Below, piece by piece: positions 29,253-51,906 of a stretch of 64,000 bases of DNA. A program made the position numbers and the translations under genes. The stretch's first letter is position 1, and each line of letters opens with the position of its first letter. Under the pieces are notes generated by a model. The model was not told the origin of the DNA and did no database searches. It worked only from the letters and a program-made list of their open reading frames with translations. The DNA comes from Bacteroidota bacterium (GTDB lineage: Bacteria > Bacteroidota > Bacteroidia > Bacteroidales > GCA-2748055): positions 16,878 to 80,877 of the forward strand of contig JBDLIX010000001.1 in assembly GCA_039714655.1 (NCBI GenBank), written 5' to 3'.

Positions 29253-30086
29253 ATGGATTTTTTTAGGTTTCTGATCACAAAGAAATTTTTTCATCACCTG
29301 GGCCTGGCTGTTGCCCTGGGGATTATCTTACTGCTTGGCACACTTGCATGGCTCAAAATATACACCCATCATGGACAGTCTATTACTGTACCGAATCTGG
29401 CCGGATTGACGGTAGAGGAGGTTGATGATGTCACATCATCGCGGCACCTTCGGTTCGAGGTTGTAGATTCGGTATTCTCAAATGAAATGCCACGGGGTAC
29501 TGTGTTAAAGCAGAATCCAAAAGCAAGCTCCCGTGTGAAGAAAAACCGGAAGATCTTCCTCACCATGAATGCAATAAATCTGGAAATGGTCTCCATGCCC
29601 AGAATGGTTGGGTTGTCCATTCGTCAGGCGAGACTTGCACTACAAAATGCAGGATTAATCCTGGGGGAGATAGAATACAGGCCCAACTTTGCCATCAATA
29701 ACGTACTACAACAATTGCACAATGACTCCGTTATTAATGAAGGAACCGAGATTACCAAAGGGGCTGTCATCGACCTGGTGCTTGGGATGGGATTAAGCAA
29801 GGAGAAAACAAGGGTCCCCAAGCTTGTTGGCGTGTTGCTGGATGAAGCCATAGAGATAATTGCAGATTACTATTTGAATATCGGGGCCATTACGTATGAT
29901 GAAAGCATGGCTAATGCAGAAGACAGTGCACATGCGTTCATTTGGCAGCAGTATCCCGAATTCGATGAATTCAAAAGGATGAATATGGGAATGGAAGTGG
30001 ATATTTGGCTTACAGTGGATTCAACCCTTTTACCGCTGCCCGATGCGACCCTCTTTGGTGAAGACACAGAAACCGTGCATGAATAG
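29253..30086 (+). CDS. PASTA-domain protein (N-terminal TM anchor)
   Basis: 277 aa with one TM segment, then three repeats of about 65 aa with a 'VPNLAGLTVEE / MPRMVGLSIRQA / VPKLVGVLLDEA' PASTA-like pattern. Confidence 0.7.
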   Translation: MDFFRFLITKKFFHHLGLAVALGIILLLGTLAWLKIYTHHGQSITVPNLAGLTVEEVDDVTSSRHLRFEVVDSVFSNEMPRGTVLKQNPKASSRVKKNRKIFLTMNAINLEMVSMPRMVGLSIRQARLALQNAGLILGEIEYRPNFAINNVLQQLHNDSVINEGTEITKGAVIDLVLGMGLSKEKTRVPKLVGVLLDEAIEIIADYYLNIGAITYDESMANAEDSAHAFIWQQYPEFDEFKRMNMGMEVDIWLTVDSTLLPLPDATLFGEDTETVHE

Positions 30087-31947
30087 ATCCGTCAAAACTT
30101 TTATAATCATCGCATTAAGCCTGGTTGGGCACCCAGGGATCTTCGCCCAGGAGGTGGTAATGCCGCTGTTCGGGAACCCCCATGCTGCTGAGCACCACCG
30201 TGATAATCTGCACGTGAAAAAATCTGCCTCAGTCACGTTGCTGGACCTTCCATTGTTTGATGATTTCTCTGCAACTGCTGTGGTTCCCGATACCGGGATC
30301 TGGAGTGATGCCTATGCTTTCGTTAATAACAACTTTTGTAAAGATCCGGTTACCAATGGAGTTGCCACGCTGGATGCGCTTGATTCCGACGGAAGCATAT
30401 ACACAACAGCAGTCCTGGCTCCTTCCACCTTTGTAGCTGATCATATGACAAGCCACTCCATCCAGCTGGAATATCCTGCTTCGGATAGTATATACCTCAG
30501 TTTTCTTTATCAACCCGGAGGACTCTGTGACGCGCCCGAGGAACAGGACTCCCTAATGGTTGATTTTTTTGCGCCTGATTCGGGACAGTGGATCAATGTC
30601 TGGAGCATTGCCGGTAGCGATCTCCTCCCCTTCAGGCATGCCATGATCCCTGTAACCAATGAGCGGTTCCTTACCAGCGGATTCAAGTTCAGGTTCAGAA
30701 ACAGGGCCAGCCTCTCTCGCAGCAACGATTACCCTGATATGCGGAGTAATGTGGATTTCTGGCACGTGGATTATGTGCGGCTTGACCGCAATAGGTTTGC
30801 GGCAGATACCGTACTTCGTGACGTGGCCTTTAACACCCCTCTCAATTCAATCTTAAAGGATCTCACTTCCCTGCCATGGTCACATTTCGAACTGGCTTAC
30901 AATACCGTTTTGGATAAATCAGCTTTTGCCAGATACAGGAACAATGATACCATCACAAGGAACGTGACCCGGTCACTCACCATTCATGAACCAATGTACA
31001 ATGAGACCCATACACCGGAAGCTCCCACTGCCCAGGACCTTCCTGCATTGAATGATACCATAGTGAACTTCGGGTATATTTACCCTTTAGACTTTAATCG
31101 TGGAGATTCGGCCATCATCAGGTTCAAAGCAGCCCTGCGTACCGATGAATTTGATCCCAAAGTGAATGACACTGTGATCTACGACCAGCTCTTTAATGAT
31201 TACTACTCTTATGATGACGGTACGGCTGAGGCAGGCTATGGATTAAGGGGAGGAGGTACAGCAGAAGGTGTTGTAGCCATGAAGTACCACTCATATCAAC
31301 CGGATCAGCTGGGGGGTGTTTACATCTATTTTAATCATGTCTATGATTCTCTCAACCTGAATTACTATTTCAATCTTGTGGTTTGGGACGATTCAGAAGG
31401 TCAACCTGGTTCGGTGATATGGGAAGACGACAATGAATACAAGCCCATCTATTCTTCCTCCTATCCCGGATTTATAAAATACCACTTCTCCCAGCCTGTA
31501 CCGGTCAATGGGCCCTTTTACGTTGGGTGGCGACAGTACAAAGAGTATATATTGAACGTGGGACTGGACCTAAATAACCGGCCGGCATCTCCGGTTATGT
31601 TTTACAACCTGCAGGGTATCTGGGAATCATCTGCAGCCCCGGGAGTAATGATGTTCAGACCCTTTCTTTACAATGAGACCTCTGGTTTACCGGGGAATTC
31701 TGCTGAATCCTCTTCCCTGCACATTTATCCAAATCCGGCCACAGATGTGATTTATTTTGAGCTACCGGTATCCCCCAATGGAGAAAGGATCCAGCTTGAG
31801 ATCTTTGATGCATCGGGCCGACTGGCGGAGCGTACCATAACAGATTCCAACAGCATGAACATATCCTCACTGCCTGCAGGGATCTATTACATTCGGGCAC
31901 TGGTTGGCAGGAGTGTTTATCATTCGAAACTACTGATTAATCCATAG
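30079..31947 (+). CDS. Secreted protein with a T9SS (Por) C-terminal sorting domain
   Basis: I chose the ATG at 30079 (MNRSVKTFIIIALSL..., signal peptide), which overlaps the upstream stop. The C-terminus 'LHIYPNPATDVIYFEL...GIYYIRALVG...SKLLINP' is the T9SS CTD type. Confidence 0.8.
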   Translation: MNRSVKTFIIIALSLVGHPGIFAQEVVMPLFGNPHAAEHHRDNLHVKKSASVTLLDLPLFDDFSATAVVPDTGIWSDAYAFVNNNFCKDPVTNGVATLDALDSDGSIYTTAVLAPSTFVADHMTSHSIQLEYPASDSIYLSFLYQPGGLCDAPEEQDSLMVDFFAPDSGQWINVWSIAGSDLLPFRHAMIPVTNERFLTSGFKFRFRNRASLSRSNDYPDMRSNVDFWHVDYVRLDRNRFAADTVLRDVAFNTPLNSILKDLTSLPWSHFELAYNTVLDKSAFARYRNNDTITRNVTRSLTIHEPMYNETHTPEAPTAQDLPALNDTIVNFGYIYPLDFNRGDSAIIRFKAALRTDEFDPKVNDTVIYDQLFNDYYSYDDGTAEAGYGLRGGGTAEGVVAMKYHSYQPDQLGGVYIYFNHVYDSLNLNYYFNLVVWDDSEGQPGSVIWEDDNEYKPIYSSSYPGFIKYHFSQPVPVNGPFYVGWRQYKEYILNVGLDLNNRPASPVMFYNLQGIWESSAAPGVMMFRPFLYNETSGLPGNSAESSSLHIYPNPATDVIYFELPVSPNGERIQLEIFDASGRLAERTITDSNSMNISSLPAGIYYIRALVGRSVYHSKLLINP

Positions 31948-43016: not shown

Positions 43017-43799
43017 ATGGCCAAAAAGTATTTCAGGAATATCTCTCTCTTCTTCATCATATGGCTGGCCGTGATGGTGATCTACTCCGTGACCCACAGA
43101 GTAACAGACCTGGATTACCTGTGGAAGTTTTTTCTGCTTCCGGCTCTGTTTCTGGGATTTATTGCTGCGCTTGCTACCACCCTTGAATATGTTTTCAATG
43201 TAAAGAAGGGGATCAACTGGATCTTCCTGGTGGTGGCAGTAGCCATAGACCAGGGGATCAAAGGGTATCTTTTTTCCCTGGATTGGCACTCCATATCCAT
43301 CCCATTGATCAAACCTGTATTTTTTATCGAGCCCACCCAAAATACCCTGGGTTCATATCTATGGGTACTCCTGGGACTAAAGCAGGGCTCCCATCTGCTG
43401 AACATCATCCTGTTCAGCCTGATCGGTATCGTATTCATCGAGGTATGGCGGTTTTATGTCAAAAGAAAGAGAAACAGTTTCTGGATCAATGGCTTTATCC
43501 ACCTCTTCCTGGCCGGTCTTGCAGCCAACCTGATAGACAATGCATTCTGGGGTGGCTCTCTGGATTATATCACCATCAAACCTTTCTATACCTTTGACCT
43601 GAAGGATCTCTATATTACGTTGTGTGAGCTGTTCCTGGTTACCGAACTGATGGACAACAGGCTACTAAAAAAGTTCATGAGAATGCCCCGAGAGGAGAGT
43701 AATCAGCTGAATAAAGATTTTATCACTTTTGTGAAACGCGATTTGGGTATTAGAAAGAAGAGGGATGATCATCATGAGTCCGGAAATGCTAATGAATAA
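43017..43799 (+). CDS. Signal peptidase II (LspA)-like membrane protein with N- and C-terminal extensions
   Basis: I trimmed the start to the ATG at 43017. LspA-like blocks present are 'VAIDQGIKGYL', 'QNTLGSY' and 'AANLIDNAFWGGSLDYI...FDLKDLYI', which retain both Asp positions. The tail is charged. Confidence 0.55.
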   Translation: MAKKYFRNISLFFIIWLAVMVIYSVTHRVTDLDYLWKFFLLPALFLGFIAALATTLEYVFNVKKGINWIFLVVAVAIDQGIKGYLFSLDWHSISIPLIKPVFFIEPTQNTLGSYLWVLLGLKQGSHLLNIILFSLIGIVFIEVWRFYVKRKRNSFWINGFIHLFLAGLAANLIDNAFWGGSLDYITIKPFYTFDLKDLYITLCELFLVTELMDNRLLKKFMRMPREESNQLNKDFITFVKRDLGIRKKRDDHHESGNANE

Positions 43800-44313
43800 C
43801 TTCTGCATCTCTTAGCATCAACATCAGTTGATAACACCTTTCAATATCCTTCACCATTGAAGATGCAGAAAATGTAGCACCCGAGATGGTATCTATATCT
43901 TTTCCCAGTTCAAGTTCCTCTCCGCTGTATCCTTTAAATTGTTTCAGCCAGCTCTTGCTGCAAATTCCCGCCCCATGTGTTGAACGGTAAACAAGAACCA
44001 TGATATTGAGAACCGTTAGCTCCTCAGAAAAGATCACACTGTAGTCAAACAGATCAAACCTCCCTTTGGCTTGTGTAGATAATAGATAACCCAGGACCAA
44101 TTCATTCCTGATCAATTCAAATACGGCATCTCCTTGCTTCAGATAGGGCTGAAGGATTGAATTATCCACGGAAATCTCAGCCTTCCGATACGCTGTTTCA
44201 CTGCCAAAAATCCGGGAAATCTCTTTTCTCTCTTTCTTTCCAGGTATTCCGGGCTCTTCTGCACTGATCCTTGTGATGCAAAACAGGCAAAATATGATTG
44301 CTATGACCCTCAT
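43789..44313 (-). CDS. Exported FMN-binding-domain protein
   Basis: I chose the ATG at 44313 (MRVIAIIFCLFCITRISA, signal peptide); the longer ORF starts at a TTG. The FMN_bind-type 'DTISGATFSASSMV' (flavinylation-type S-G-A-T) is preceded by 'WLKQFKG'. Confidence 0.7.
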   Translation of the reverse strand: MRVIAIIFCLFCITRISAEEPGIPGKKERKEISRIFGSETAYRKAEISVDNSILQPYLKQGDAVFELIRNELVLGYLLSTQAKGRFDLFDYSVIFSEELTVLNIMVLVYRSTHGAGICSKSWLKQFKGYSGEELELGKDIDTISGATFSASSMVKDIERCYQLMLMLRDAEVIH

Positions 44314-44330
44314 TTTCTCCTCTCGTTTGA

Positions 44331-45515
44331 CTAAAACCAAATAGCCACACCGGCATTCAGCTGCTGCCCGGATCCACTTGTACCGCGATTATTAAATATC
44401 TGATAGTCCAGTTTCAACATGGCTCCCGATGCTAATTTCCAACCCAAACCAAAGGTCAGGTCACTTCGGTTATTGGATTCATTCAGGATCGTCCCTTCCG
44501 CAACAGAGCCATGTGTGTGGTATTGCTCCACCCTGAGAAACGGGATCAGATCAGTTTCAAACCTGTCCGAAGCATGAAGCAAATTGTAAGCAACTTCACC
44601 ATACCACCCATAGATAGTGCTACCCAGGTCACTTCCGGTGAATTCATTATAATTCGAAGAATTTGAAACAATGCCATAATTCAACTGAGCTTTCAGTTGG
44701 AGACCTCCCTTGGAATAACGTGCATCTGCACCTATCATACTGAGTCCTACCACAGAAGAATCAGCCCTGATCATCGCATCATTGTCCGATTTGTCGAGAC
44801 CATCATAAAGAGTGGACTGTGTGTTTCCTCTATAGCCTGAAAATCCCAGCTGTAATCCTGAGATGCCAAAGTAATTGACTTTAAAGGTAAGATTAGGGGC
44901 ACTCATCAATGATTCTGCTCCCTTCTGACGACCCTTTCTGAATCCGTTGGAGCCGCTAAGATTGGCAGAACCATCATATCCATTAAATCCATTCACTATA
45001 TAGAGCTGGTATGAGAGTGAGCTGGATGGAAAGACACCTGCAAATCCTGCTCCGATTTCACGCCAGGTGGATGGAACGATGTATTTGTCCAGGTTAGGTC
45101 GCTCAACTCCGTTAAAAGTTGAGGGTTCATGATATTCATTGATAATGCCCATGGGGATCAGCATCAATCCACCTCTGAATTTCAACCAGGGAGTGATCTC
45201 ATATTGCAAAAATGCCTGTTCCACATAAATCTCCTTAACGTGTTCAAACTCCACCTCAGAAACGAATTGTGTTTTTTCATTGAATTTGTATCCGAACATC
45301 AGGACCATCCGGTGTACATCCAACCCTGCATTCTGATATGTTCCGTTTTCAACAGGCTGGTTAAAGTCAATCTGCCCATACCCTCCGATAGTAAGACGCT
45401 CAACTTCATCCATCATTCGTGTCGCACTGTTTTTCTGCTCCTGCCCACTGAGCCATATTGTACTAACCAGAAGCCCAAACGAAATGGCCATGGTTTTACA
45501 TCTCAATTCGTTCAT
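44331..45515 (-). CDS. Porin-like outer-membrane beta-barrel protein
   Basis: About 394-402 aa; the start is ambiguous (TTG 45539, ATG 45515 or ATG 45491). It has a signal peptide, a beta-strand pattern, and C-terminal 'NAGVAIWF'. Confidence 0.6.
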   Translation of the reverse strand: MNELRCKTMAISFGLLVSTIWLSGQEQKNSATRMMDEVERLTIGGYGQIDFNQPVENGTYQNAGLDVHRMVLMFGYKFNEKTQFVSEVEFEHVKEIYVEQAFLQYEITPWLKFRGGLMLIPMGIINEYHEPSTFNGVERPNLDKYIVPSTWREIGAGFAGVFPSSSLSYQLYIVNGFNGYDGSANLSGSNGFRKGRQKGAESLMSAPNLTFKVNYFGISGLQLGFSGYRGNTQSTLYDGLDKSDNDAMIRADSSVVGLSMIGADARYSKGGLQLKAQLNYGIVSNSSNYNEFTGSDLGSTIYGWYGEVAYNLLHASDRFETDLIPFLRVEQYHTHGSVAEGTILNESNNRSDLTFGLGWKLASGAMLKLDYQIFNNRGTSGSGQQLNAGVAIWF

Positions 45516-45697
45516 ATTCAGTAATGTTTCTTGTACCAAACAAAACTATGCCAAATCCAGGGTCATTTGACCCATGGCAAATTTTGGCAATACCATTCTA
45601 AATAGGAAAATTGGTTTTCTGTCTGACTGACAGGAAAATAATAGATAATAGAGATGGGTTATTTAGAATAAAATACCTAGAAGTAGGGATATCCCCA

Positions 45698-46195
45698 TTA
45701 TATCTCCCTGGCCGGCTGAACAGGGTATCTTTCGAAGATTTCAGAAGCCACTTCATGAAGTTTTGCAGCTCTCTCTTCCGGATCATAATCCAGTTCATCA
45801 ACAGCAGCGCAATGCCAAACGTGCTTCCTGGCTTGATTGTCATACATATCTACTGCAATGGCACGCTCCATGAAATTGTACCTCCACCGATAACCATAAT
45901 ATCTGTCCATCGCCTCACGGTGGTAAACAGTTATTTTGACCGAAACATCGCCATTCTCTTCTACGAACTGTAAGCCTCTTTGCTCCAGTTCCCTGGCAAT
46001 TGCTACACGAATTCGCTCCAGTTCCATCCCCGTTATGGTCTCTTTGTTCCCATCCGTAAAATCCATAAAACTGTAGGTCGCATACTGTTCGAAACTCGTT
46101 GCATCGTCCAGGTCATAATATACCCGCATGGAAGATCCACACCCGTTAAGCAGAACCACAGCAAGAATCCAAATAGGAATGAATATATTTCTCAT
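45698..46195 (-). CDS. DUF4136-like lipoprotein
   Basis: 165 aa with lipobox 'LLNGC'. Size and layout resemble my recollection of the DUF4136 family. Confidence 0.6.
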   Translation of the reverse strand: MRNIFIPIWILAVVLLNGCGSSMRVYYDLDDATSFEQYATYSFMDFTDGNKETITGMELERIRVAIARELEQRGLQFVEENGDVSVKITVYHREAMDRYYGYRWRYNFMERAIAVDMYDNQARKHVWHCAAVDELDYDPEERAAKLHEVASEIFERYPVQPAREI

Positions 46196-46329
46196 GATTT
46201 CTATCCTTATATTTAAGCATAAGAGTCACAAATACTATGCCATGCAAAAAAAGTTCCCCATAGGGTAAATCCATTTTTAAGCATCCTATATGAAAGAGCA
46301 TGATTTAAACATTAAAAAACCAAATAGTG

Positions 46330-47619
46330 ATGAAAACTTTATACTTGAACAAAGGGTCCTGGGTATTGGTTCTGGCCATTTTCTTAAGTGCATCAGTATA
46401 TGCTATGCCAATGGGAGACGAGGAGCTGATCGATACCATTAATTTCAAAGCATATTTCGGCAAGGTTATCGATGGTCATACCGCACGGGCCCTTCCTTTT
46501 GCTACTATTGAAGCGACAGGAAGTAACATTGCTACAGTATCCAATATTGATGGAGAATTCACCATAAAAATTGCCAGGGATTCAGATATATCCGATATAA
46601 AGGTCTCTTACATTGGATTTCGTAACCAAACCATACCCCTTAGTCAGTTTAAAAACAAGAAACTTACCATCAAACTGGATCCCAGCACGGTTCAGCTAAA
46701 AGAGGTCACAATCAGGCCAGCGGATGCCATGGAACTGATTGTTGATGTGCTGGCCAATGTAAGGGAGAACTATAGTAACGATCCTATGATGATGCGAGGA
46801 TTTTACCGGGAGACGATCCAGAGGGGACGAAACTACGTTTCCATCTCCGAAGCGGTAGTCGACATCTTCAAAGGAGCGTACTCCAATGAATTCCAAAGTG
46901 ACCAGGTAAAGCTTTTCAAAGGAAGGAAGAGTGCAGATGTTGAAAAAATGGATACCGTATTATTCAAAGTACAGGGTGGGCCCAACACAACCATTCTGCT
47001 TGATGTGATGAAGAACCCATACGTTCTCCTTTCAGTTGACTACTATGATATCTACGATTTTCACGTGAGTGATATCATCAACATCGATGACAAACTGCAT
47101 TATGTGGTCACATTCAATCAGAAAATGTACGTAGAGGAGCCTTATTATTACGGGAAGTTATACATCGATATGGAAAAACTTGCCATCTCAGAAGCTGAGT
47201 TTGAGCTGAATATTGAGAACCAGGAGGAAGCTGCCAGACTATTTATTAAGAGAAAACCCATGGGCATGACCATTATCCCGGAAAGGGCAGCTTATAGGGT
47301 CAAGTATACCATTGAGGAGGAGCGTTGGTACTTCAGTTATGCCCGGGCAGAAGTAAAATTCAAGGTCAATTGGAAGAAGAAACTTTTTAATACCACCTAC
47401 ACGACCATGTCGGAACTGGCCATTACGGACCGCACCTACGAGGGAATTGAAAAGTTTGCAGCAAAGGAGAGATTTAAGAGAACTGATGTGATGGGTGAAA
47501 AGGTATATATATTCTTCGACCAGGGCTTCTGGGAAGGTTACAACGTAATCGAACCAGATCAGTCTATTGAAAGTGCCATTCGCAAGCTGAATCGAAAATA
47601 CCTGAGGCGAAACAGTTGA
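46330..47619 (+). CDS. Carboxypeptidase-regulatory-like domain protein with an uncharacterised C-terminal body (paralog of 49269-50819)
   Basis: It has a signal peptide and a CarboxypepD_reg-like 'GKVIDGHTARALPFATIEATGS...DGEFTI...VSYIGF'. It is colinear with the 516-aa protein downstream (FYRET/FYRES, SEAVVDI/SEAVLDV, AEVKFKV/AEVEFKV, ELAITD/EMAITD). Confidence 0.65.
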   Translation: MKTLYLNKGSWVLVLAIFLSASVYAMPMGDEELIDTINFKAYFGKVIDGHTARALPFATIEATGSNIATVSNIDGEFTIKIARDSDISDIKVSYIGFRNQTIPLSQFKNKKLTIKLDPSTVQLKEVTIRPADAMELIVDVLANVRENYSNDPMMMRGFYRETIQRGRNYVSISEAVVDIFKGAYSNEFQSDQVKLFKGRKSADVEKMDTVLFKVQGGPNTTILLDVMKNPYVLLSVDYYDIYDFHVSDIINIDDKLHYVVTFNQKMYVEEPYYYGKLYIDMEKLAISEAEFELNIENQEEAARLFIKRKPMGMTIIPERAAYRVKYTIEEERWYFSYARAEVKFKVNWKKKLFNTTYTTMSELAITDRTYEGIEKFAAKERFKRTDVMGEKVYIFFDQGFWEGYNVIEPDQSIESAIRKLNRKYLRRNS

Positions 47620-47651
47620 TCCAGTTTAAACAGTATCTATAAATATAGTTC

Positions 47652-47718
47652 AAAGCGCTGTCTACAAGAATTGTGTAACTTTACCATCCCTGTATAAGCC
47701 ACAATAAGACAGCGCTTT
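47652..47718. repeat. Perfect 12-bp inverted repeat with a 43-nt loop upstream of the ECF sigma gene
   Basis: 'aaagcgctgtct' (47652-47663) pairs with 'agacagcgcttt' (47707-47718). It ends 12 nt before the ATG at 47731. Confidence 0.8.
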
Positions 47719-47730
47719 TCAAACCTAACA

Positions 47731-48279
47731 ATGGTCCTGAAAGAACAACAGCAGCTGAGAAAGATCCAAAAGGGTGATATCCATTCTTTTGAGAGGCTTT
47801 TTCACCGGTTTCACCCCGGGCTCTGTGGTTATGCTGAAAGTCTGGTAACTAAAGGCGAGGTTGCAGAAGAGGTGGTACAGGACGTGTTCTATAATATTTG
47901 GAAGAATAGAGAGACATTAAGGATCAACAGGAGCTGGCAAAGTTACCTGTACCGCGCGGTCTATAACAATTCCATGATGTACCTCCGTAAAATGCGCCGG
48001 GAACAACCCCTGGATGAAAGGAGCTCACTGGATCATCAGATTAACACTCCCGATCCGTCTCAGTTGATGCAGTTGAACGAAGTTTCGGAAATGATTTCGG
48101 GAACGCTTGAAGGTCTGCCTGAAAGAACCAGGGAGATCTTCTATTTGAATCGTCAGGAGGGATTGAAATACAGAGAAATTGCAGAAAGGCTCTCGATCTC
48201 AGTGAAGACCGTGGAAGCAAATATGGGCAAAGCATTAAAAGCATTGCGAAACAGCCTGGAGAAATATGAAAAAGAGTAG
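47731..48279 (+). CDS. ECF-type RNA polymerase sigma factor
   Basis: 182 aa with a region 2 ('VVQDVFYNIWKNRE') and a region 4 HTH ('KYREIAERLSISVKTVEANMGKAL'). Confidence 0.85.
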   Translation: MVLKEQQQLRKIQKGDIHSFERLFHRFHPGLCGYAESLVTKGEVAEEVVQDVFYNIWKNRETLRINRSWQSYLYRAVYNNSMMYLRKMRREQPLDERSSLDHQINTPDPSQLMQLNEVSEMISGTLEGLPERTREIFYLNRQEGLKYREIAERLSISVKTVEANMGKALKALRNSLEKYEKE

Positions 48280-49258
48280 AGACATCCATATGGCCAGGTT
48301 CCTTGCCGGCGAGATGAGTGTGAAAGAGGAGATTGCATTCAGAAATGAAGTTGAAAGCAATTCTAAACAACAGTCTGAATTGAATAACATGGAAAAGAGT
48401 TGGAAATATTTTGACGAGAATCCCTCCCGAGGACAAAGGGATTCCAGCAAAGCCTGGAGCAATTTGCACAGAAGGCTTGAAGAAGAAGGATTATTGGAGG
48501 AGCGACCTGCCGGAACAGGGAGCAAGCATATACTTCCTGCACTAAAGATAGCCGCATCAATCCTACTGATACTGGCCATCGGAATCCCGACGCTTTACTT
48601 TGGGATTATCCGAAACAGCAATGGTAAGCCTGGTCAGAGCTATTATTCCGAGAAAGGAGTCAGCACCATAGATCTTCCCGATGGCAGCCGGATATACCTC
48701 AATGAAGGAGCAGAGATTTCCTATCCCCCTGCCTTTAATCAGGAAAGATCGGTGAATCTTAAAGGTGAGGCTTTTTTCGAAGTGATGTCGGATCCTGTTA
48801 ATCCGTTTACCGTACGTACGGGCAAAGTAGTGATCTCAGTACTTGGAACCTCATTCAATGTAAAGAAATCGGGCCATGCGCAAAAGGTGGAGGTATTTGT
48901 TAAAACAGGGAAAGTCAGAATGTCCATGGAAAATGCCAAACAATTCATTACCCTGGAACCGGGGGAGATGGGGCTGGCCGAAAGTCAGAATCTGACCAGC
49001 TCTATCCAGAAAGATCCCAATTATATTTCATGGAAGACAAAAGATTTTAAATTTGTAGATGCAGAGCTTTTAGAAGTTCTCCGGGAGTTGGAAGAATCCT
49101 ACCATGTGAAAATTCACCCCGATCGGGTTGAATTGAATGATATGAAGATCACCACCTCCTACAGCGAACAATCCATTGACGCCATCCTTGAAACCATTGG
49201 CGCTGCGTTCGATTTGACAATCAGCCACAGGGAGGACGGCTATTATCTGACCAAATGA
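48266..49258 (+). CDS. FecR-family anti-sigma factor
   Basis: 330 aa with a short cytoplasmic N-terminus, one TM segment ('ILLILAIGIPTLYF'), and a FecR periplasmic domain ('DLPDGSRIYLNEGAEI...GEAFFEV'). It overlaps the sigma gene by 14 nt. Confidence 0.85.
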   Translation: MKKSRDIHMARFLAGEMSVKEEIAFRNEVESNSKQQSELNNMEKSWKYFDENPSRGQRDSSKAWSNLHRRLEEEGLLEERPAGTGSKHILPALKIAASILLILAIGIPTLYFGIIRNSNGKPGQSYYSEKGVSTIDLPDGSRIYLNEGAEISYPPAFNQERSVNLKGEAFFEVMSDPVNPFTVRTGKVVISVLGTSFNVKKSGHAQKVEVFVKTGKVRMSMENAKQFITLEPGEMGLAESQNLTSSIQKDPNYISWKTKDFKFVDAELLEVLRELEESYHVKIHPDRVELNDMKITTSYSEQSIDAILETIGAAFDLTISHREDGYYLTK

Positions 49259-49268
49259 TATAGACCAT

Positions 49269-50819
49269 ATGGGAATCTTAAAAAGGGGAAATATGACTGG
49301 TCGTCTTCGCCTGGGCCCCCTTTTCATGATGATCCTATTCCTTTCCCCTCCCCTGCAATGTCAGGATTCAATACCGGAGATCCATGTGACAGTCTCATCA
49401 AAAAGCCGAACCATCAATCAGGTCCTGGATGAGATCACCCTGCAGACAGGATACAATTTTACCTATAACGCGGGACTGATCACCGGGAAACAACGGATTC
49501 AATTCTCAGTAGAAGAATTATTACTGGAAAAAACACTGGACTCACTCCTTCAAAATCCGCAATTAGCATACCGGGAAATCGATCGTAACATTGTCATTTA
49601 TAAAAAGAATGAAACTGCTCCCATCCCAATCAACCCGGAGTTCAATCGTATCATATTTAAAGGAAGAGTACTTGACAGTCGCTCCGGAAAACCACTTCCT
49701 TATGCAACCATTGCACTTTTCGGAACCAGCCAGGGATCCATTTGCAACCAGGAGGGTGCCTTCTCTTTCAAAATCCCTGAAAGAATATCCGATCCACTGT
49801 TGGTTGTCTCATACATGGGATACAAACGATTGTTGCTGCCAGTAAGCTACCCTGTGGAAGAGGAGATCAGCATCCTGCTTGAAAGAGAAATGATTCCCCT
49901 TCAGGAAGTAATTATCAGGTTTGCAGATCCCGAATTACTGTTAATTGAAGCCATGAGTCGGATTCCCAGCAACTATCTGGATGATCATGCCACCATGACT
50001 GCTTTTTACAGGGAATCGGTGAAACGAAATGATCATTGCATGGTCTATTCTGAAGCAGTGCTGGATGTGGCAAAAGGACCTTACTCAAAAAACTCAACCG
50101 GCGACCGGGTACGGATCAGGAAGGGGAGAAAAATAGCTGATGTCTCCACAAAGGATACGGTGCTGATCAAACATCGCTCCGGGATATACACCTCCCTAAG
50201 TCTGGATGTGATCAAGGAACGTCCTGACTTTCTCGCCGATGATTTCCTTGACAGGTATGACCTTGAATTCACGGATCTGATGACTTATGGAGAGCGTTTG
50301 GTTTACGTGATCAGCTTCCGGCAGAAAAGTAATATTTCTGCCCTTCTTTTTAGTGGACAGCTATACCTGGACCAGGAGCATCTGGCCCTCCTGGCAGCTG
50401 ATTTTGAATATAACCCGGAAATGATTCACAAAGAGCCAGGGCTTTTTCTGGTGAGTCGTTCACCCAAAATTCGTATCCGTCCCACACTGGCCAGGTATCA
50501 TGTCGATTACAGGGAAATGGATGGCAAATACCATGTAAGTCAGGTTCGTGCAGAGGTAGAATTTAAGGTGCGTAAACGACGTCAATGGATCGGTGCCAGG
50601 TATCGGATCTCACTTGAAATGGCCATCACCGATGTAATCCCCGGCCAAAGGCTTCGGATCAAAGCTTCGGAAAGGGTAAGTCCGAATAGTGTTCTTTCCG
50701 ATGAATCCTTCCAATTTGACCCTTCATTCTGGGGTATCTATAACACAATTAAGCCGGAAGCCTCTCTAAGGGAGTCCATCCAACGTCTCGAGCAAAACCT
50801 CCAACAGATCAACGATTAA
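49269..50819 (+). CDS. STN (secretin/TonB N-terminal signalling) domain + CarboxypepD_reg-like protein apparently lacking a TonB-dependent barrel
   Basis: 516 aa with a signal peptide. The STN-like stretch is 'VSSKSRTINQVLDEITLQTGYNFTYNAGLI...LEKTLDSLLQNPQLAYREIDRNIVIY'. The remainder is colinear with the 430-aa protein at 46330-47619. Confidence 0.7.
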   Translation: MGILKRGNMTGRLRLGPLFMMILFLSPPLQCQDSIPEIHVTVSSKSRTINQVLDEITLQTGYNFTYNAGLITGKQRIQFSVEELLLEKTLDSLLQNPQLAYREIDRNIVIYKKNETAPIPINPEFNRIIFKGRVLDSRSGKPLPYATIALFGTSQGSICNQEGAFSFKIPERISDPLLVVSYMGYKRLLLPVSYPVEEEISILLEREMIPLQEVIIRFADPELLLIEAMSRIPSNYLDDHATMTAFYRESVKRNDHCMVYSEAVLDVAKGPYSKNSTGDRVRIRKGRKIADVSTKDTVLIKHRSGIYTSLSLDVIKERPDFLADDFLDRYDLEFTDLMTYGERLVYVISFRQKSNISALLFSGQLYLDQEHLALLAADFEYNPEMIHKEPGLFLVSRSPKIRIRPTLARYHVDYREMDGKYHVSQVRAEVEFKVRKRRQWIGARYRISLEMAITDVIPGQRLRIKASERVSPNSVLSDESFQFDPSFWGIYNTIKPEASLRESIQRLEQNLQQIND

Positions 50820-50836
50820 AATTCATATCTTCGTCC

Positions 50837-51250
50837 ATGGAGAAACTGTCGGAAAGCATCATAGAAGAACTGGTCCAACAAAAGCTGGAGGGTGAGAGTT
50901 ACTCCCGGATCAGGTCCGGACTTGCCGAACAGGGATTCACTGATGAGGAGATCAGATCATCCATCAGGAAGATTGATGAAAGGGTCCTGAGGGCCGAGAT
51001 TGAACAAGGAAGTCGTAACAGGGCAAAATCATGGTATCGGATCGGGCTTGCATTGGCTGTTGCAGGATTAATTCTTACCATTGGATCCAATGCTGGCTGG
51101 ATGCTTAAAGGAATCCCGGGATGGGTGATATATAGTCCCTTTTTTGCCGGTATCCTGATCATGTATTATGGCAAACGGTTGCAGATTAAGCAATCCAATC
51201 CCTTTGAAAAAGGAGCGGATAGAATCAGGAAGAAAAGGCCCTATAAATAG
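50837..51250 (+). CDS. Hypothetical membrane protein (soluble N-terminal domain + 2 TM)
   Basis: 137 aa with two hydrophobic segments. I recognised no motif. Confidence 0.45.
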   Translation: MEKLSESIIEELVQQKLEGESYSRIRSGLAEQGFTDEEIRSSIRKIDERVLRAEIEQGSRNRAKSWYRIGLALAVAGLILTIGSNAGWMLKGIPGWVIYSPFFAGILIMYYGKRLQIKQSNPFEKGADRIRKKRPYK

Positions 51251-51258
51251 AATATAAT

Positions 51259-51906
51259 ATGATTGAGGAGTTAGTAAAAAAACGCTTTCCATTTTTTGAA
51301 TCAGGGCTCCGGTTAGCCATTAGTGAGGAGGGAACCTATAAAGTGTTTGAGGAGAACCAGGAACTTATCCGCGAGGACCAGTTTATCAGAGCCTTCCCTA
51401 TTGTGCTCTCAGGGCTCATAAAAGTTTGCCGTACAGATGAAGCTGGCAATGAATTGCTGCTCTATTATATGCGACCGGGTGAGGTATGTACCGTATCCCT
51501 GATCTGCTGCATGGACAGGACAAAGAGCAGGGTGAAAGCCATTGCTGAAGATTCAACCACCGTGGTTTTGATCCCGGTAGAGTTGTTGGACAGTTGGATG
51601 ACACAGTTCCAGACCTGGAAAGAATATGTAATGCATTCCATGCAGATGAGGTTTGATGAATTACTTAATGCGCTGGACAGTATTGCTTTTATGAAGATGG
51701 ATGAGCGACTCGAAAGATTTTTTACTGACCGTTTCCGAACCACCGGCTCCATGATTTTTCAAGGATCACACCAGGATGTTGCTCTGGCTCTGAACAGTTC
51801 CAGAGAGGTCATTTCAAGGCTGTTGAAACAGATGGAGAAAAACGGATTGATCAGCCTCTACCGTGGAAGGATCGATTATTCTCCTTTATGTGACAAAAGT
51901 TACTGA
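51259..51906 (+). CDS. Crp/Fnr family transcriptional regulator
   Basis: 215 aa with a cNMP-binding-like fold and a C-terminal HTH ('SHQDVALALNSSREVISRLLKQM'). Confidence 0.8.
   Translation: MIEELVKKRFPFFESGLRLAISEEGTYKVFEENQELIREDQFIRAFPIVLSGLIKVCRTDEAGNELLLYYMRPGEVCTVSLICCMDRTKSRVKAIAEDSTTVVLIPVELLDSWMTQFQTWKEYVMHSMQMRFDELLNALDSIAFMKMDERLERFFTDRFRTTGSMIFQGSHQDVALALNSSREVISRLLKQMEKNGLISLYRGRIDYSPLCDKSY

Follow-up and report, generated by a model that had tools for sequence, protein, structure and literature searches.

In Bacteroidota, pairs of an extracytoplasmic function (ECF) sigma factor and a FecR-type anti-sigma factor are assumed to report nutrient binding at SusC-type transporters, and STN domains and TonB boxes are regarded as belonging to barrels of the outer membrane, those of TonB-dependent transducers and secretins. 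Elsewhere, the periplasmic protein RseB shields the anti-sigma factor RseA from proteolysis until lipid or lipopolysaccharide species bind; we know of no RseB-like sensor in Bacteroidota. Work on FoxA and FoxR shows that, when no signal is present, the STN domain of FoxA is bound to the STN-like domain at the FoxR C-terminus and guards FoxR from proteolysis; TonB attaches immediately downstream of this signalling domain, which may act even once cleaved from the barrel (PMC11637429). In Dma, the anti-sigma factor is itself reported to span both membranes. Here, we describe a four-gene cassette found in a 64,000-nucleotide stretch of contig JBDLIX010000001.1 from a Bacteroidota bacterium (the window). 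The cassette encodes an STN-less protein, an ECF sigma factor, a FecR-type anti-sigma factor and a 516-aa secreted paralog of the first protein, in which the front end of a SusC-type transducer is joined to a domain predicted to resemble LolA and RseB. We consider it somewhat probable that the cassette is a self-contained envelope-signalling unit, in which a periplasmic STN sensor would control FecR proteolysis and the freed sigma factor would induce the STN-less paralog.

An earlier note on this DNA had read the four open reading frames in this order and had named the second and third as ECF sigma factor and FecR anti-sigma factor; the coordinates (Table 1) and the family matches confirm both points. 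The sigma factor carries Pfam Sigma70_r2 and r4_2 domains and scores 166.9 bits against NCBIfam TIGR02985 (cutoff 126.4). The anti-sigma factor matches Pfam FecR (PF04773, 59.9 bits) and FecR_C (PF16344, 34.7 bits). It has a cytoplasmic N-terminus, one transmembrane helix at about aa 90-115 as read from the sequence, the FecR domain at aa 131-217 and FecR_C at aa 261-322. All 60 orthologues compared keep a VLGTxFNV segment unchanged (G194-T195 in the window protein); it corresponds to the Gly-Thr self-cleavage site of FoxR, which would make this FecR one of the canonical self-cleaving type. The FecR gene shares 14 nt with the sigma gene, and 10 nt past the FecR stop codon the STN gene begins; these three genes are therefore very likely co-transcribed.

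The 516-aa protein comprises a signal peptide, an STN domain, an N-terminal extension (NTE; Pfam CarbopepD_reg_2) and a C-terminal domain, hereafter the body. The signal peptide is of type I; homologues lack the Cys that precedes Gln32 and have A-Q at this place. Pfam places STN (PF07660) at aa 62-113 with 29.0 bits (gathering cutoff 28.4), and homologues score 34.6-39.9 bits, in agreement with the earlier assignment of the N-terminus as STN. Foldseek matches the region to the signalling domains of FoxA and FpvA and to secretin/PilQ N0 domains, and a profile search matches it to the PupA signalling domain (2a02, E=0.093). The FecR_C model (PF16344) also weakly matches the STN domains of one relative (locus L060, 5926-7497) and of five other members of a 62-member family alignment (best E=1.9e-5), which fits the known fold relationship between STN and the FecR C-terminal domain. 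CarbopepD_reg_2 follows at aa 131-216 (51.9 bits), where a CarboxypepD_reg-like domain had been read. Foldseek superimposes the NTE on the SusC NTE crystal structure 9hfj with a template modelling (TM) score of 0.89, and profile matches to SusC/RagA NTEs have E values of 1e-7 to 4e-11.

The 185-aa stretch of STN and NTE is collinear over 97-98% of its length with annotated SusC/RagA and TonB-dependent receptor (TBDR) genes of Parabacteroides, Bacteroides, Spirosoma and Chondrinema. In several of these alignments, an STN-like region lies before the NTE, contrary to the order given for SusC transducers, in which the NTE is said to precede STN (PMC7782687); we follow the alignments. A BLASTP alignment with the 1101-aa SusC of Parabacteroides distasonis (E=5e-13) stops at LQEVII/LDEVVV, before the Plug domain at 206-334. 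For this SusC (locus L080, 4417-7722; compared with window positions 49380-49916), Pfam STN is not reported at E<=1e-3. A profile comparison with an 806-aa NTE-Plug-barrel TBDR that neighbours the cassette in another locus (L046) likewise stops at the TonB box, LGLEEVVISS. The body does not align to the plug or barrel of true TBDRs; homology ends at the TonB box.

It is at this boundary that the earlier note was mistaken, having seen no TonB-box-like region: 211-LQEVIIR-217 sits where SusC has its TonB box in four separate comparisons. A solved TonB-linked receptor has its TonB box (LNEVVV) where this segment aligns, and so, at profile level, do RagA and solved SusC homologues (LDEVVV). In Bt1763, the validated TonB box 81-VDEVVV-86 comes straight after the NTE (PMC7782687). 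The residues that follow LQEVII (R-xx-DP) differ from those of SusC (82-DEVVVTG-88 in Bt1763, PMC7782687). Within the family, the motif [LI]xE[VI]x[IV]R-xx-DP recurs in inspected representatives, R217 is invariant in an alignment of 87 close members, and the STN-less paralog carries 124-LKEVTIR-130 as counterpart; in the AlphaFold2 model the region has a predicted local distance difference test (pLDDT) score of about 62. Judged by homology, the 516-aa protein has all periplasmic parts that stand at the front of a SusC-type transducer: STN, NTE and a TonB-box-like strand. Other parts of the earlier description stand. Pfam finds no Plug (PF07715) and no TonB_dep_Rec or other barrel family (PF00593 or similar) in the 516-aa protein, the paralog or the 62 family members. 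The two proteins score 35.6 and 46.6 bits against the SusC/RagA model TIGR04056 (cutoff 368.25), with the match confined to the NTE region. There is also no SusD-like gene in the window or in 58 related loci; in the window, the STN gene is trailed instead by genes for a 137-aa membrane protein and a Crp-family regulator.

AlphaFold2 models were built from the 87-sequence alignment. The full-length model had a pLDDT of 79.1, and the body alone reached a pLDDT of 80.9 and a predicted TM score (pTM) of 0.80. The modelled body begins with a helix, after which 10 long strands run antiparallel, interrupted midway by three short helices; its C-terminal part holds a conserved FDPxFWGxYNxIxPE motif followed by an amphipathic C-terminal helix. 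When the body alone was compared with the PDB by Foldseek, the top 18 matches were all LolA-superfamily proteins or lipid-binding open barrels (probability 0.85-1.00, E values from 6e-7 to 1.5e-3). The best was DUF1329 (4z48; E=6e-7, TM 0.41). Others included LolA3 of Porphyromonas gingivalis (9tp6), NE2245, a 'LolA superfamily protein' (3buu), RseB (2v42, 3m4w, 2p4b) and the MucB-MucA complex (6in9), together with microsomal triglyceride transfer protein, lipovitellin, vitellogenin, ApoB and LprG; P. gingivalis LolA (8cgm) appeared lower down. Closed outer-membrane barrels had a probability of <=0.2, and no TonB-dependent transducer (TBDT) appeared. The body is thus predicted to adopt a LolA/RseB-like open half-barrel.

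At the sequence level, Pfam matches nothing in aa 217-516 of the 516-aa protein, including MucB_RseB, and NCBIfam matches nothing at threshold on the body; no Pfam or NCBIfam LolA model reaches threshold there, and sequence-level searches of the body against PDB chains gave no match. LolA_like (PF17131) was matched below threshold only, in two of the 62 family members (16.6 bits, cutoff 30), and these matches lend the predicted fold weak but independent sequence-level support. A 901-aa metagenomic protein (P0293) has the architecture STN-NTE-body-body, a tandem duplication whose second copy is the best PF17131 match (E=0.0065). DUF5686 (PF18939) weakly matches two of the 62 aligned members (best E=5e-5), and the body may be related, at a greater distance, to DUF5686 proteins. 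The 806-aa NTE protein mentioned above was considered as a DUF5686 member and turned out to be an ordinary NTE-Plug-barrel TBDR. Identity with BamP (NF053692) was likewise rejected: only the paralog matches, with 17.1 bits against a cutoff of 230, and the architecture is different.

The 430-aa product of the first gene comprises a signal peptide, an NTE/CarbopepD_reg_2 domain (aa 45-129), the LKEVTIR segment and a LolA-like body, with CarbopepD_reg_2 as its only Pfam match. It is 34% identical to the 516-aa protein over 379 aa (E=6e-74). It had been described as an STN-less paralog of the body, which is right, and the aligned stretch covers the NTE as well. Hundreds of close relatives of each protein occur in Bacteroidota and in Bacteroidales metagenomes. 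An exhaustive search with the body alone gave 1278 clusters at 50% identity with E<=1e-3, of which 310 had E<=1e-30. The top 150 representatives, assigned with local hidden Markov models built from this family, divide into 101 STN-NTE-body proteins, 38 NTE-body proteins, 10 fragments and the two-body 901-aa protein.

To place the genes in context, species-representative genomes were scanned with two peptide patterns taken from the 87-sequence alignment; this yielded 76 loci, a lower bound on the taxonomic range. Of these, 58 repeat the order paralog, sigma, FecR, STN protein, among them loci of Salinivirgaceae, Rikenellaceae, Marinifilaceae and unclassified Bacteroidales at only 31-35% identity. 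FecR directly precedes 56 of the 57 STN-containing genes with enough upstream sequence, at a gap of about 9-10 nt, and a sigma gene follows 55 of 61 STN-less genes. The distant loci are flanked by unrelated housekeeping genes (PFL, EamA, RRF, DXS, DEAD helicase, GH5, hybrid kinase), so that conservation is confined to the four genes, and these have neither a TBDT nor a SusD partner. In a neighbour-joining tree of body domains, 93 of 101 STN-less members fall in a pure clade and 138 of 163 STN-containing members in an almost pure one. These separate clades indicate one old duplication, followed by co-inheritance of the two forms. Stand-alone STN-less members occur in Paludibacter, Lacinutrix, Salinimicrobium flavum and others. 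The cassette is present in cultured P. distasonis, and a homologue of the STN protein in Phocaeicola massiliensis. In Parabacteroides merdae JCM9497, both family members are among only 15 genes downregulated by 10 mM N-acetylneuraminic acid (Neu5Ac) relative to sugar-free medium (PMC12893687). These two genes are probably genes 1 and 4 of a quartet, because their locus tags step by five.

The STN-less paralog is preceded by an ECF-type bipartite motif, TAGGGT(A)-N15-CATC(TTA) (46261-46285), which the cassette contains at no other place. It has the form of an ECF -35/-10 pair and is found at the same place and with the same fixed spacing upstream of the paralog in about 50 loci, including those at 31-35% identity and P. 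distasonis. Its -10 part varies in the most divergent loci (GATCTTA, TCTCTTA), and four of five stand-alone paralogs lack it. The copy upstream of the paralog is the sole perfect match in the window, and about 7 other matches occur elsewhere in 883 kb searched on both strands. These findings suggest that the cassette's own sigma factor uses TAGGGT-N15-CATC. They also give support to the earlier idea that the STN-less paralog is an effector, since the conserved promoter motif is found upstream of the paralog only. The co-regulation seen in P. merdae fits a shared sigma-dependent promoter with read-through. Two of the further matches in the 883 kb accompany genes inserted directly downstream of the STN gene: in L017 (8462-8486) it precedes an S9-family peptidase gene, and in L025 (2076-2100) an FMN_bind-like gene followed by an S9 peptidase gene. 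These inserted genes may be extra regulon members. A generic sigma-70 promoter and terminator scan, which misses long-loop hairpins by design and does not model Bacteroidota promoters, returned nothing relevant.

Between the paralog and the sigma gene lies a conserved hairpin with a stem of 12-14 bp and a loop of about 43 nt. The RNA fold has a predicted energy of -23.5 kcal/mol (z=-4.2). Its outer helix is 96% paired across loci, compared with 31-57% for slid controls. Five of 12 pairs are changed on both sides; there are 29-30 double-change cells, where shuffled alignments give about 10 (0 of 500). G is paired with U in several loci, which fits plus-strand RNA only. The inner helix is weakly supported, with three pairs 91% and two pairs 45% paired, and Rfam gave no family match on the cassette. 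The loop encloses a conserved block, TTGTGTAACTTTACCATCCCTG (47671-47692), whose TAACTTTA core reads TAAATTTG or TACATTTG in more distant loci and resembles the Bacteroidota housekeeping -7 element TAnnTTTG. We also considered the block as a second copy of the ECF promoter and rejected this: CATCC is shared, but there is no TAGGGT at the right spacing. We infer that the hairpin is a terminator of paralog transcripts with a basal promoter for the sigma, FecR and sensor genes nested in its loop; transcripts starting inside the loop would read through, because they lack the 5' arm. The hairpin occurs in the window's clade, and P. distasonis has only a short simple hairpin at that position.

Table 1. 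Features of the cassette (window coordinates)
Feature	Position	Strand	Remarks
ECF-type bipartite motif TAGGGTAAATCCATTTTTAAGCATCCTA, TAGGGT-N15-CATC	46261..46288	+	About 66 nt upstream of paralog start
STN-less paralog gene	46327-47619	+	430 aa from GTG; ATG at 46330 is the NCBI start
Conserved hairpin, then T-run	47652..47719	+	5' arm 47652-47663; 3' arm 47707-47718
ECF sigma gene	47731-48279	+	182 aa; Bacteroidota FecI-like type (TIGR02985)
FecR-type anti-sigma gene	48266-49258	+	330 aa; 14-nt overlap with sigma gene
Barrel-less STN sensor gene (putative)	49269-50819	+	516 aa; NCBI start at Met9 gives 508 aa
STN signalling domain	49374..49622	+	aa 36-118 of the 516-aa protein; Pfam, Foldseek and profile matches
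NTE domain (CarbopepD_reg_2, Ig-like), as in SusC	49644..49898	+	aa 126-210
TonB-box-like motif LQEVIIR	49899..49919	+	aa 211-217, directly after NTE; low-confidence linker
Body	49920..50816	+	aa 218-516; predicted LolA/RseB-like open half-barrel (AlphaFold2 and Foldseek)

Compared with TBDT-based cell-surface signalling (FecA-FecR-FecI, FoxA-FoxR-FoxI and the Bacteroides SusC-type systems), the cassette shares a tightly linked FecI-like ECF sigma factor, an anti-sigma factor with FecR and FecR_C domains and the invariant Gly-Thr, and a partner protein whose STN, NTE and TonB-box-like strand are collinear with SusC N-termini. It differs in that this partner has no Plug, leaves only about 300 aa where a 22-strand barrel would be needed, ends in a predicted LolA/RseB-like half-barrel and is not followed by a SusD gene. 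The regulated output, moreover, appears to be the STN-less sensor paralog rather than a transporter operon. Because the sensor is most likely periplasmic, its signal would probably arise inside the envelope and not at the cell surface.

The likeness to RseB-RseA-sigmaE and MucB-MucA-AlgU lies in the coupling, predicted here, of a LolA-like periplasmic protein to a single-pass ECF anti-sigma factor. Unlike these systems, however, the cassette has a FecR-type rather than an RseA-type anti-sigma factor, and the link to it would run through a fused STN domain and FecR_C instead of direct binding by the LolA-like domain. The body has no sequence relationship to MucB_RseB, and the NTE, the TonB-box-like motif and the STN-less paralog are additions. 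With Bacteroidota LolA1-3 and LolB1-2 (PMC11885536, PMC13103446), DUF1329 and PF17131, the modelled body agrees in layout, with an N-terminal helix, a predicted unclosed antiparallel barrel and embedded short helices, and LolA/LolB proteins and the cassette's proteins alike have type I signal peptides for export. At about 300 aa, the body exceeds the 180-240 aa of these proteins; it carries the extra FDPxFWGxYNxIxPE motif and C-terminal helix, and is fused to an NTE with or without STN under ECF sigma regulation. Like Dma, the cassette is a Bacteroidota departure from the design of a TBDT transducer plus a separate anti-sigma factor; in the cassette the anti-sigma factor is a canonical FecR, and the novelty is in its STN partner. 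Altogether, the cassette looks like a hybrid, in which the connector of cell-surface signalling (STN-FecR_C contact, proteolysis and ECF release) is combined with a LolA-like sensing domain of the RseB/MucB type.

A working scheme can be drawn from these comparisons. The exported sensor would sit in the periplasm, its most likely location, where its STN domain would bind the C-terminal STN-like domain of FecR and shield FecR from periplasmic proteases, much as the FoxA signalling domain does for FoxR and RseB for RseA. That a barrel-less STN protein is a plausible partner for FecR follows from the findings on Fox (PMC11637429), and the contact itself is suggested by this analogy and by the adjacency of the two genes. 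A ligand would then occupy the LolA-like domain. The leading candidate is some hydrophobic molecule of the envelope, for example a lipid, the acyl chain of a lipoprotein or a species resembling lipid A. Its binding would break the shield, possibly with TonB engaging the exposed TonB-box-like strand, and FecR would be degraded and the sigma factor released. The sigma factor would transcribe from TAGGGT-N15-CATC upstream of the paralog, which would accumulate as effector; by carrying or sequestering the same ligand, or by competing for the same partner, the paralog could exert feedback. Read-through from the paralog promoter would autoregulate the sigma, FecR and sensor genes, and in the window's clade the covarying terminator-like hairpin with its promoter-like loop block seems to separate basal expression of the sensor from induced expression of the paralog.

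A more specific version of this scheme, which we regard as doubtful, is that a soluble periplasmic STN-NTE-TonB-box protein reports the loading of its lipid domain to FecR, with TonB pulling on a protein that has no barrel and an inducible carrier paralog as output. The cassette would then be a TonB-coupled response to envelope-lipid or lipoprotein-trafficking stress in Bacteroidales, including the human gut genera Parabacteroides and Phocaeicola, a proposal to which we give no more weight than to the version it completes. As for the earlier suggestion of a trans-envelope module in which a sensor that is no TBDT talks to FecR, the lack of plug and barrel bears it out while the supposed lack of a TonB box does not. 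It is therefore partly supported: STN-FecR signalling and the solubility of the sensor are putative, and the claim about the TonB box was wrong.

Several observations weigh against a lipid-sensing signalling unit. The top fold matches of the body have TM scores of only 0.22-0.41 and root-mean-square deviations of 10-18 A, so that 'LolA-like' here denotes a resemblance in fold class and not membership. The body contains many invariant polar residues (R248, E249, E262, K269, D279, D296, K301 and D313), which speak against a lipid pocket because a pure acyl-chain pocket would not need them. A fusion of NTE, body and Beta-lactamase domains hints at a non-lipid role. The STN domain of the window protein barely clears the Pfam threshold, and in some orthologues it scores 17-27 bits, below threshold. 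One orphan STN-containing member (L065, 5827-7497; STN 39.9 bits) has no adjacent sigma or FecR gene, its upstream neighbour being an SNF2 helicase gene. Within the window alone, the ECF-type motif with one mismatch allowed is no commoner than expected by chance, so its weight comes from positional conservation; its pairing with the cassette's sigma factor is a proposal, as are the STN-FecR contact, the periplasmic location and the ligand. The quartet arrangement in P. merdae is read from locus-tag spacing.

One of the other explanations takes both proteins to be periplasmic accessory or docking factors (for example carriers, chaperones or hydrolase cofactors), whose expression the sigma factor and FecR control on some other cue, and whose STN, NTE and TonB-box parts serve only as tethers to envelope machinery, for instance TonB, BAM or secretin-like partners, with no signalling by STN. 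STN/N0 domains are general oligomerisation modules (PMC11637429). The STN-less paralog retains the NTE and the TonB-box-like motif, which implies a role for these parts independent of signalling. GerS, a LolA-like protein, is reported to activate an amidase (10.1101/2025.01.13.632879), and the Beta-lactamase fusion and the orphan member L065 point the same way. Yet STN is found only in the copy that directly follows FecR, with L065 as the sole exception, FecR keeps both its C-terminal STN-binding domain and its self-cleavage motif, and no other candidate sensor gene is conserved with the cassette. We judge this explanation, including the tethering role it assigns to the front end, to be unlikely. 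Signalling of the same kind with a non-lipid ligand ranks below it in our estimate. Here, what the body recognises would stem from the cell wall or from a glycan, or would be a protein partner, and the paralog would serve an enzyme as a binding or presenting factor. Many charged and aromatic residues of the body are invariant, one relative is fused to a serine hydrolase domain of PF00144, a family that includes DD-peptidases and esterases, and in some loci S9 peptidase and FMN_bind-like genes with the same ECF motif lie downstream of the STN gene. The P. merdae genes, too, respond to carbon source (PMC12893687). All significant fold matches, however, are lipid or lipoprotein binders or the lipid-sensing RseB and MucB, the weak LolA_like sequence matches point to lipid as well, and the hydrolase fusion was seen only once.

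It could also be argued that the body closes into a small beta-barrel within the outer membrane, which would make the protein a miniature, plug-less TonB-dependent transducer signalling like FecA. The body is indeed rich in beta-strands of 8-17 residues, the TonB-box-like motif is kept, and low-ranking Foldseek matches include OccK/OpdK, OpcA, NalP and PorB. Against this, barrel matches do not exceed a probability of 0.2, compared with 0.85-1.0 for LolA-like folds, and the model has just 10 strands with three short helices between them and a helix in front, which is the layout of LolA (PMC11885536). About 58 residues follow the last strand and end in an amphipathic helix (...LQQIND) with no terminal aromatic beta-signal; the invariant neighbours R248-E249 lie in mid-strand, the strand at 401-417 is charged on both faces, and no outer-membrane protein family is matched in Pfam. 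We therefore consider a miniature barrel improbable, and the compact outer-membrane barrel with a plug that the earlier note had set against its own interpretation finds no counterpart in a body resembling LolA/RseB-like open barrels. Finally, the two genes might be decayed, truncated or pseudogenised remnants of a TonB-dependent transducer with no function of their own, given that the N-terminal 180 aa are homologous to SusC N-termini and that the likeness to SusC stops at the TonB box. The family nevertheless counts hundreds of intact members of constant length, the body is conserved, confidently folded and unrelated to plug or barrel, the synteny is ancient, and the genes are expressed and regulated in P. 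merdae. These conservation data effectively refute decay, which we hold to be scarcely credible.

A self-contained signalling unit with a periplasmic STN sensor thus remains the reading we favour. The architecture appears to be new as a functional system: Pfam and NCBIfam have no model for the body, RefSeq names the domains only, full-text literature searches returned no functional or structural study of this architecture, and the ECF classification paper makes no mention of this gene context. The proviso of the earlier note, that the family might already be described with a known role, found nothing to sustain it. What the family suggests is a rewired switch, large, old and tightly linked, in which a SusC front end has been placed on a LolA/RseB-like domain and would listen elsewhere, most likely inside the envelope. 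The assumed tie between STN domain, TonB box and barrel is broken in a family that is widespread and occurs in tractable gut species (cultured Parabacteroides and Phocaeicola). If the proposed mechanism is true, Bacteroidota would gain a candidate pathway for envelope stress or lipid homeostasis. The cassette would also provide a natural test of whether STN controls FecR proteolysis without a barrel, as recent work on FoxA suggests, and would make one ask what role TonB has for a client protein that lacks a barrel. Being small, with a predicted promoter and output gene and genetically tractable hosts, the module is directly testable.

Fusion of the body to an enzyme was encountered on a plasmid of Chondrinema litorale (NZ_CP111045.1; L082, 4599-6899), where a 766-aa 'serine hydrolase' (WP_284686837.1) has a body-like domain (24% identity, E=6e-19) between an NTE and Beta-lactamase (PF00144). 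By Rosetta-stone reasoning, this single case may hint at a periplasmic hydrolase as a working partner of the body.

Genes around the cassette were also inspected. The genes that trail the STN gene in the window (50837-51906, plus strand) encode the 137-aa membrane protein, which has no family match, and a Crp/Fnr-type regulator; the pair belongs to the closer clade, insertions sometimes split it from the STN gene, and both genes are absent from distant loci. A separate 634-aa protein encoded at 30043-31947 (plus strand) carries a C-terminal Por_Secre_tail, the sorting domain of the type IX secretion system, and the source organism therefore has such a system; the domain is absent from both the STN protein and the STN-less paralog. 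Divergent from the paralog, at 43789-46195 on the minus strand, are genes for a DUF4136 lipoprotein (165 aa), a porin-like protein (402 aa, with a weak Porin_O_P match) and an FMN_bind protein (183 aa). We considered these three, the 137-aa membrane protein and the Crp regulator as members of the module and set them aside, since their synteny with the cassette is limited to the closer clade and distant loci lack them. Of the divergent genes, that for DUF4136 is still present in loci at about 43% identity.

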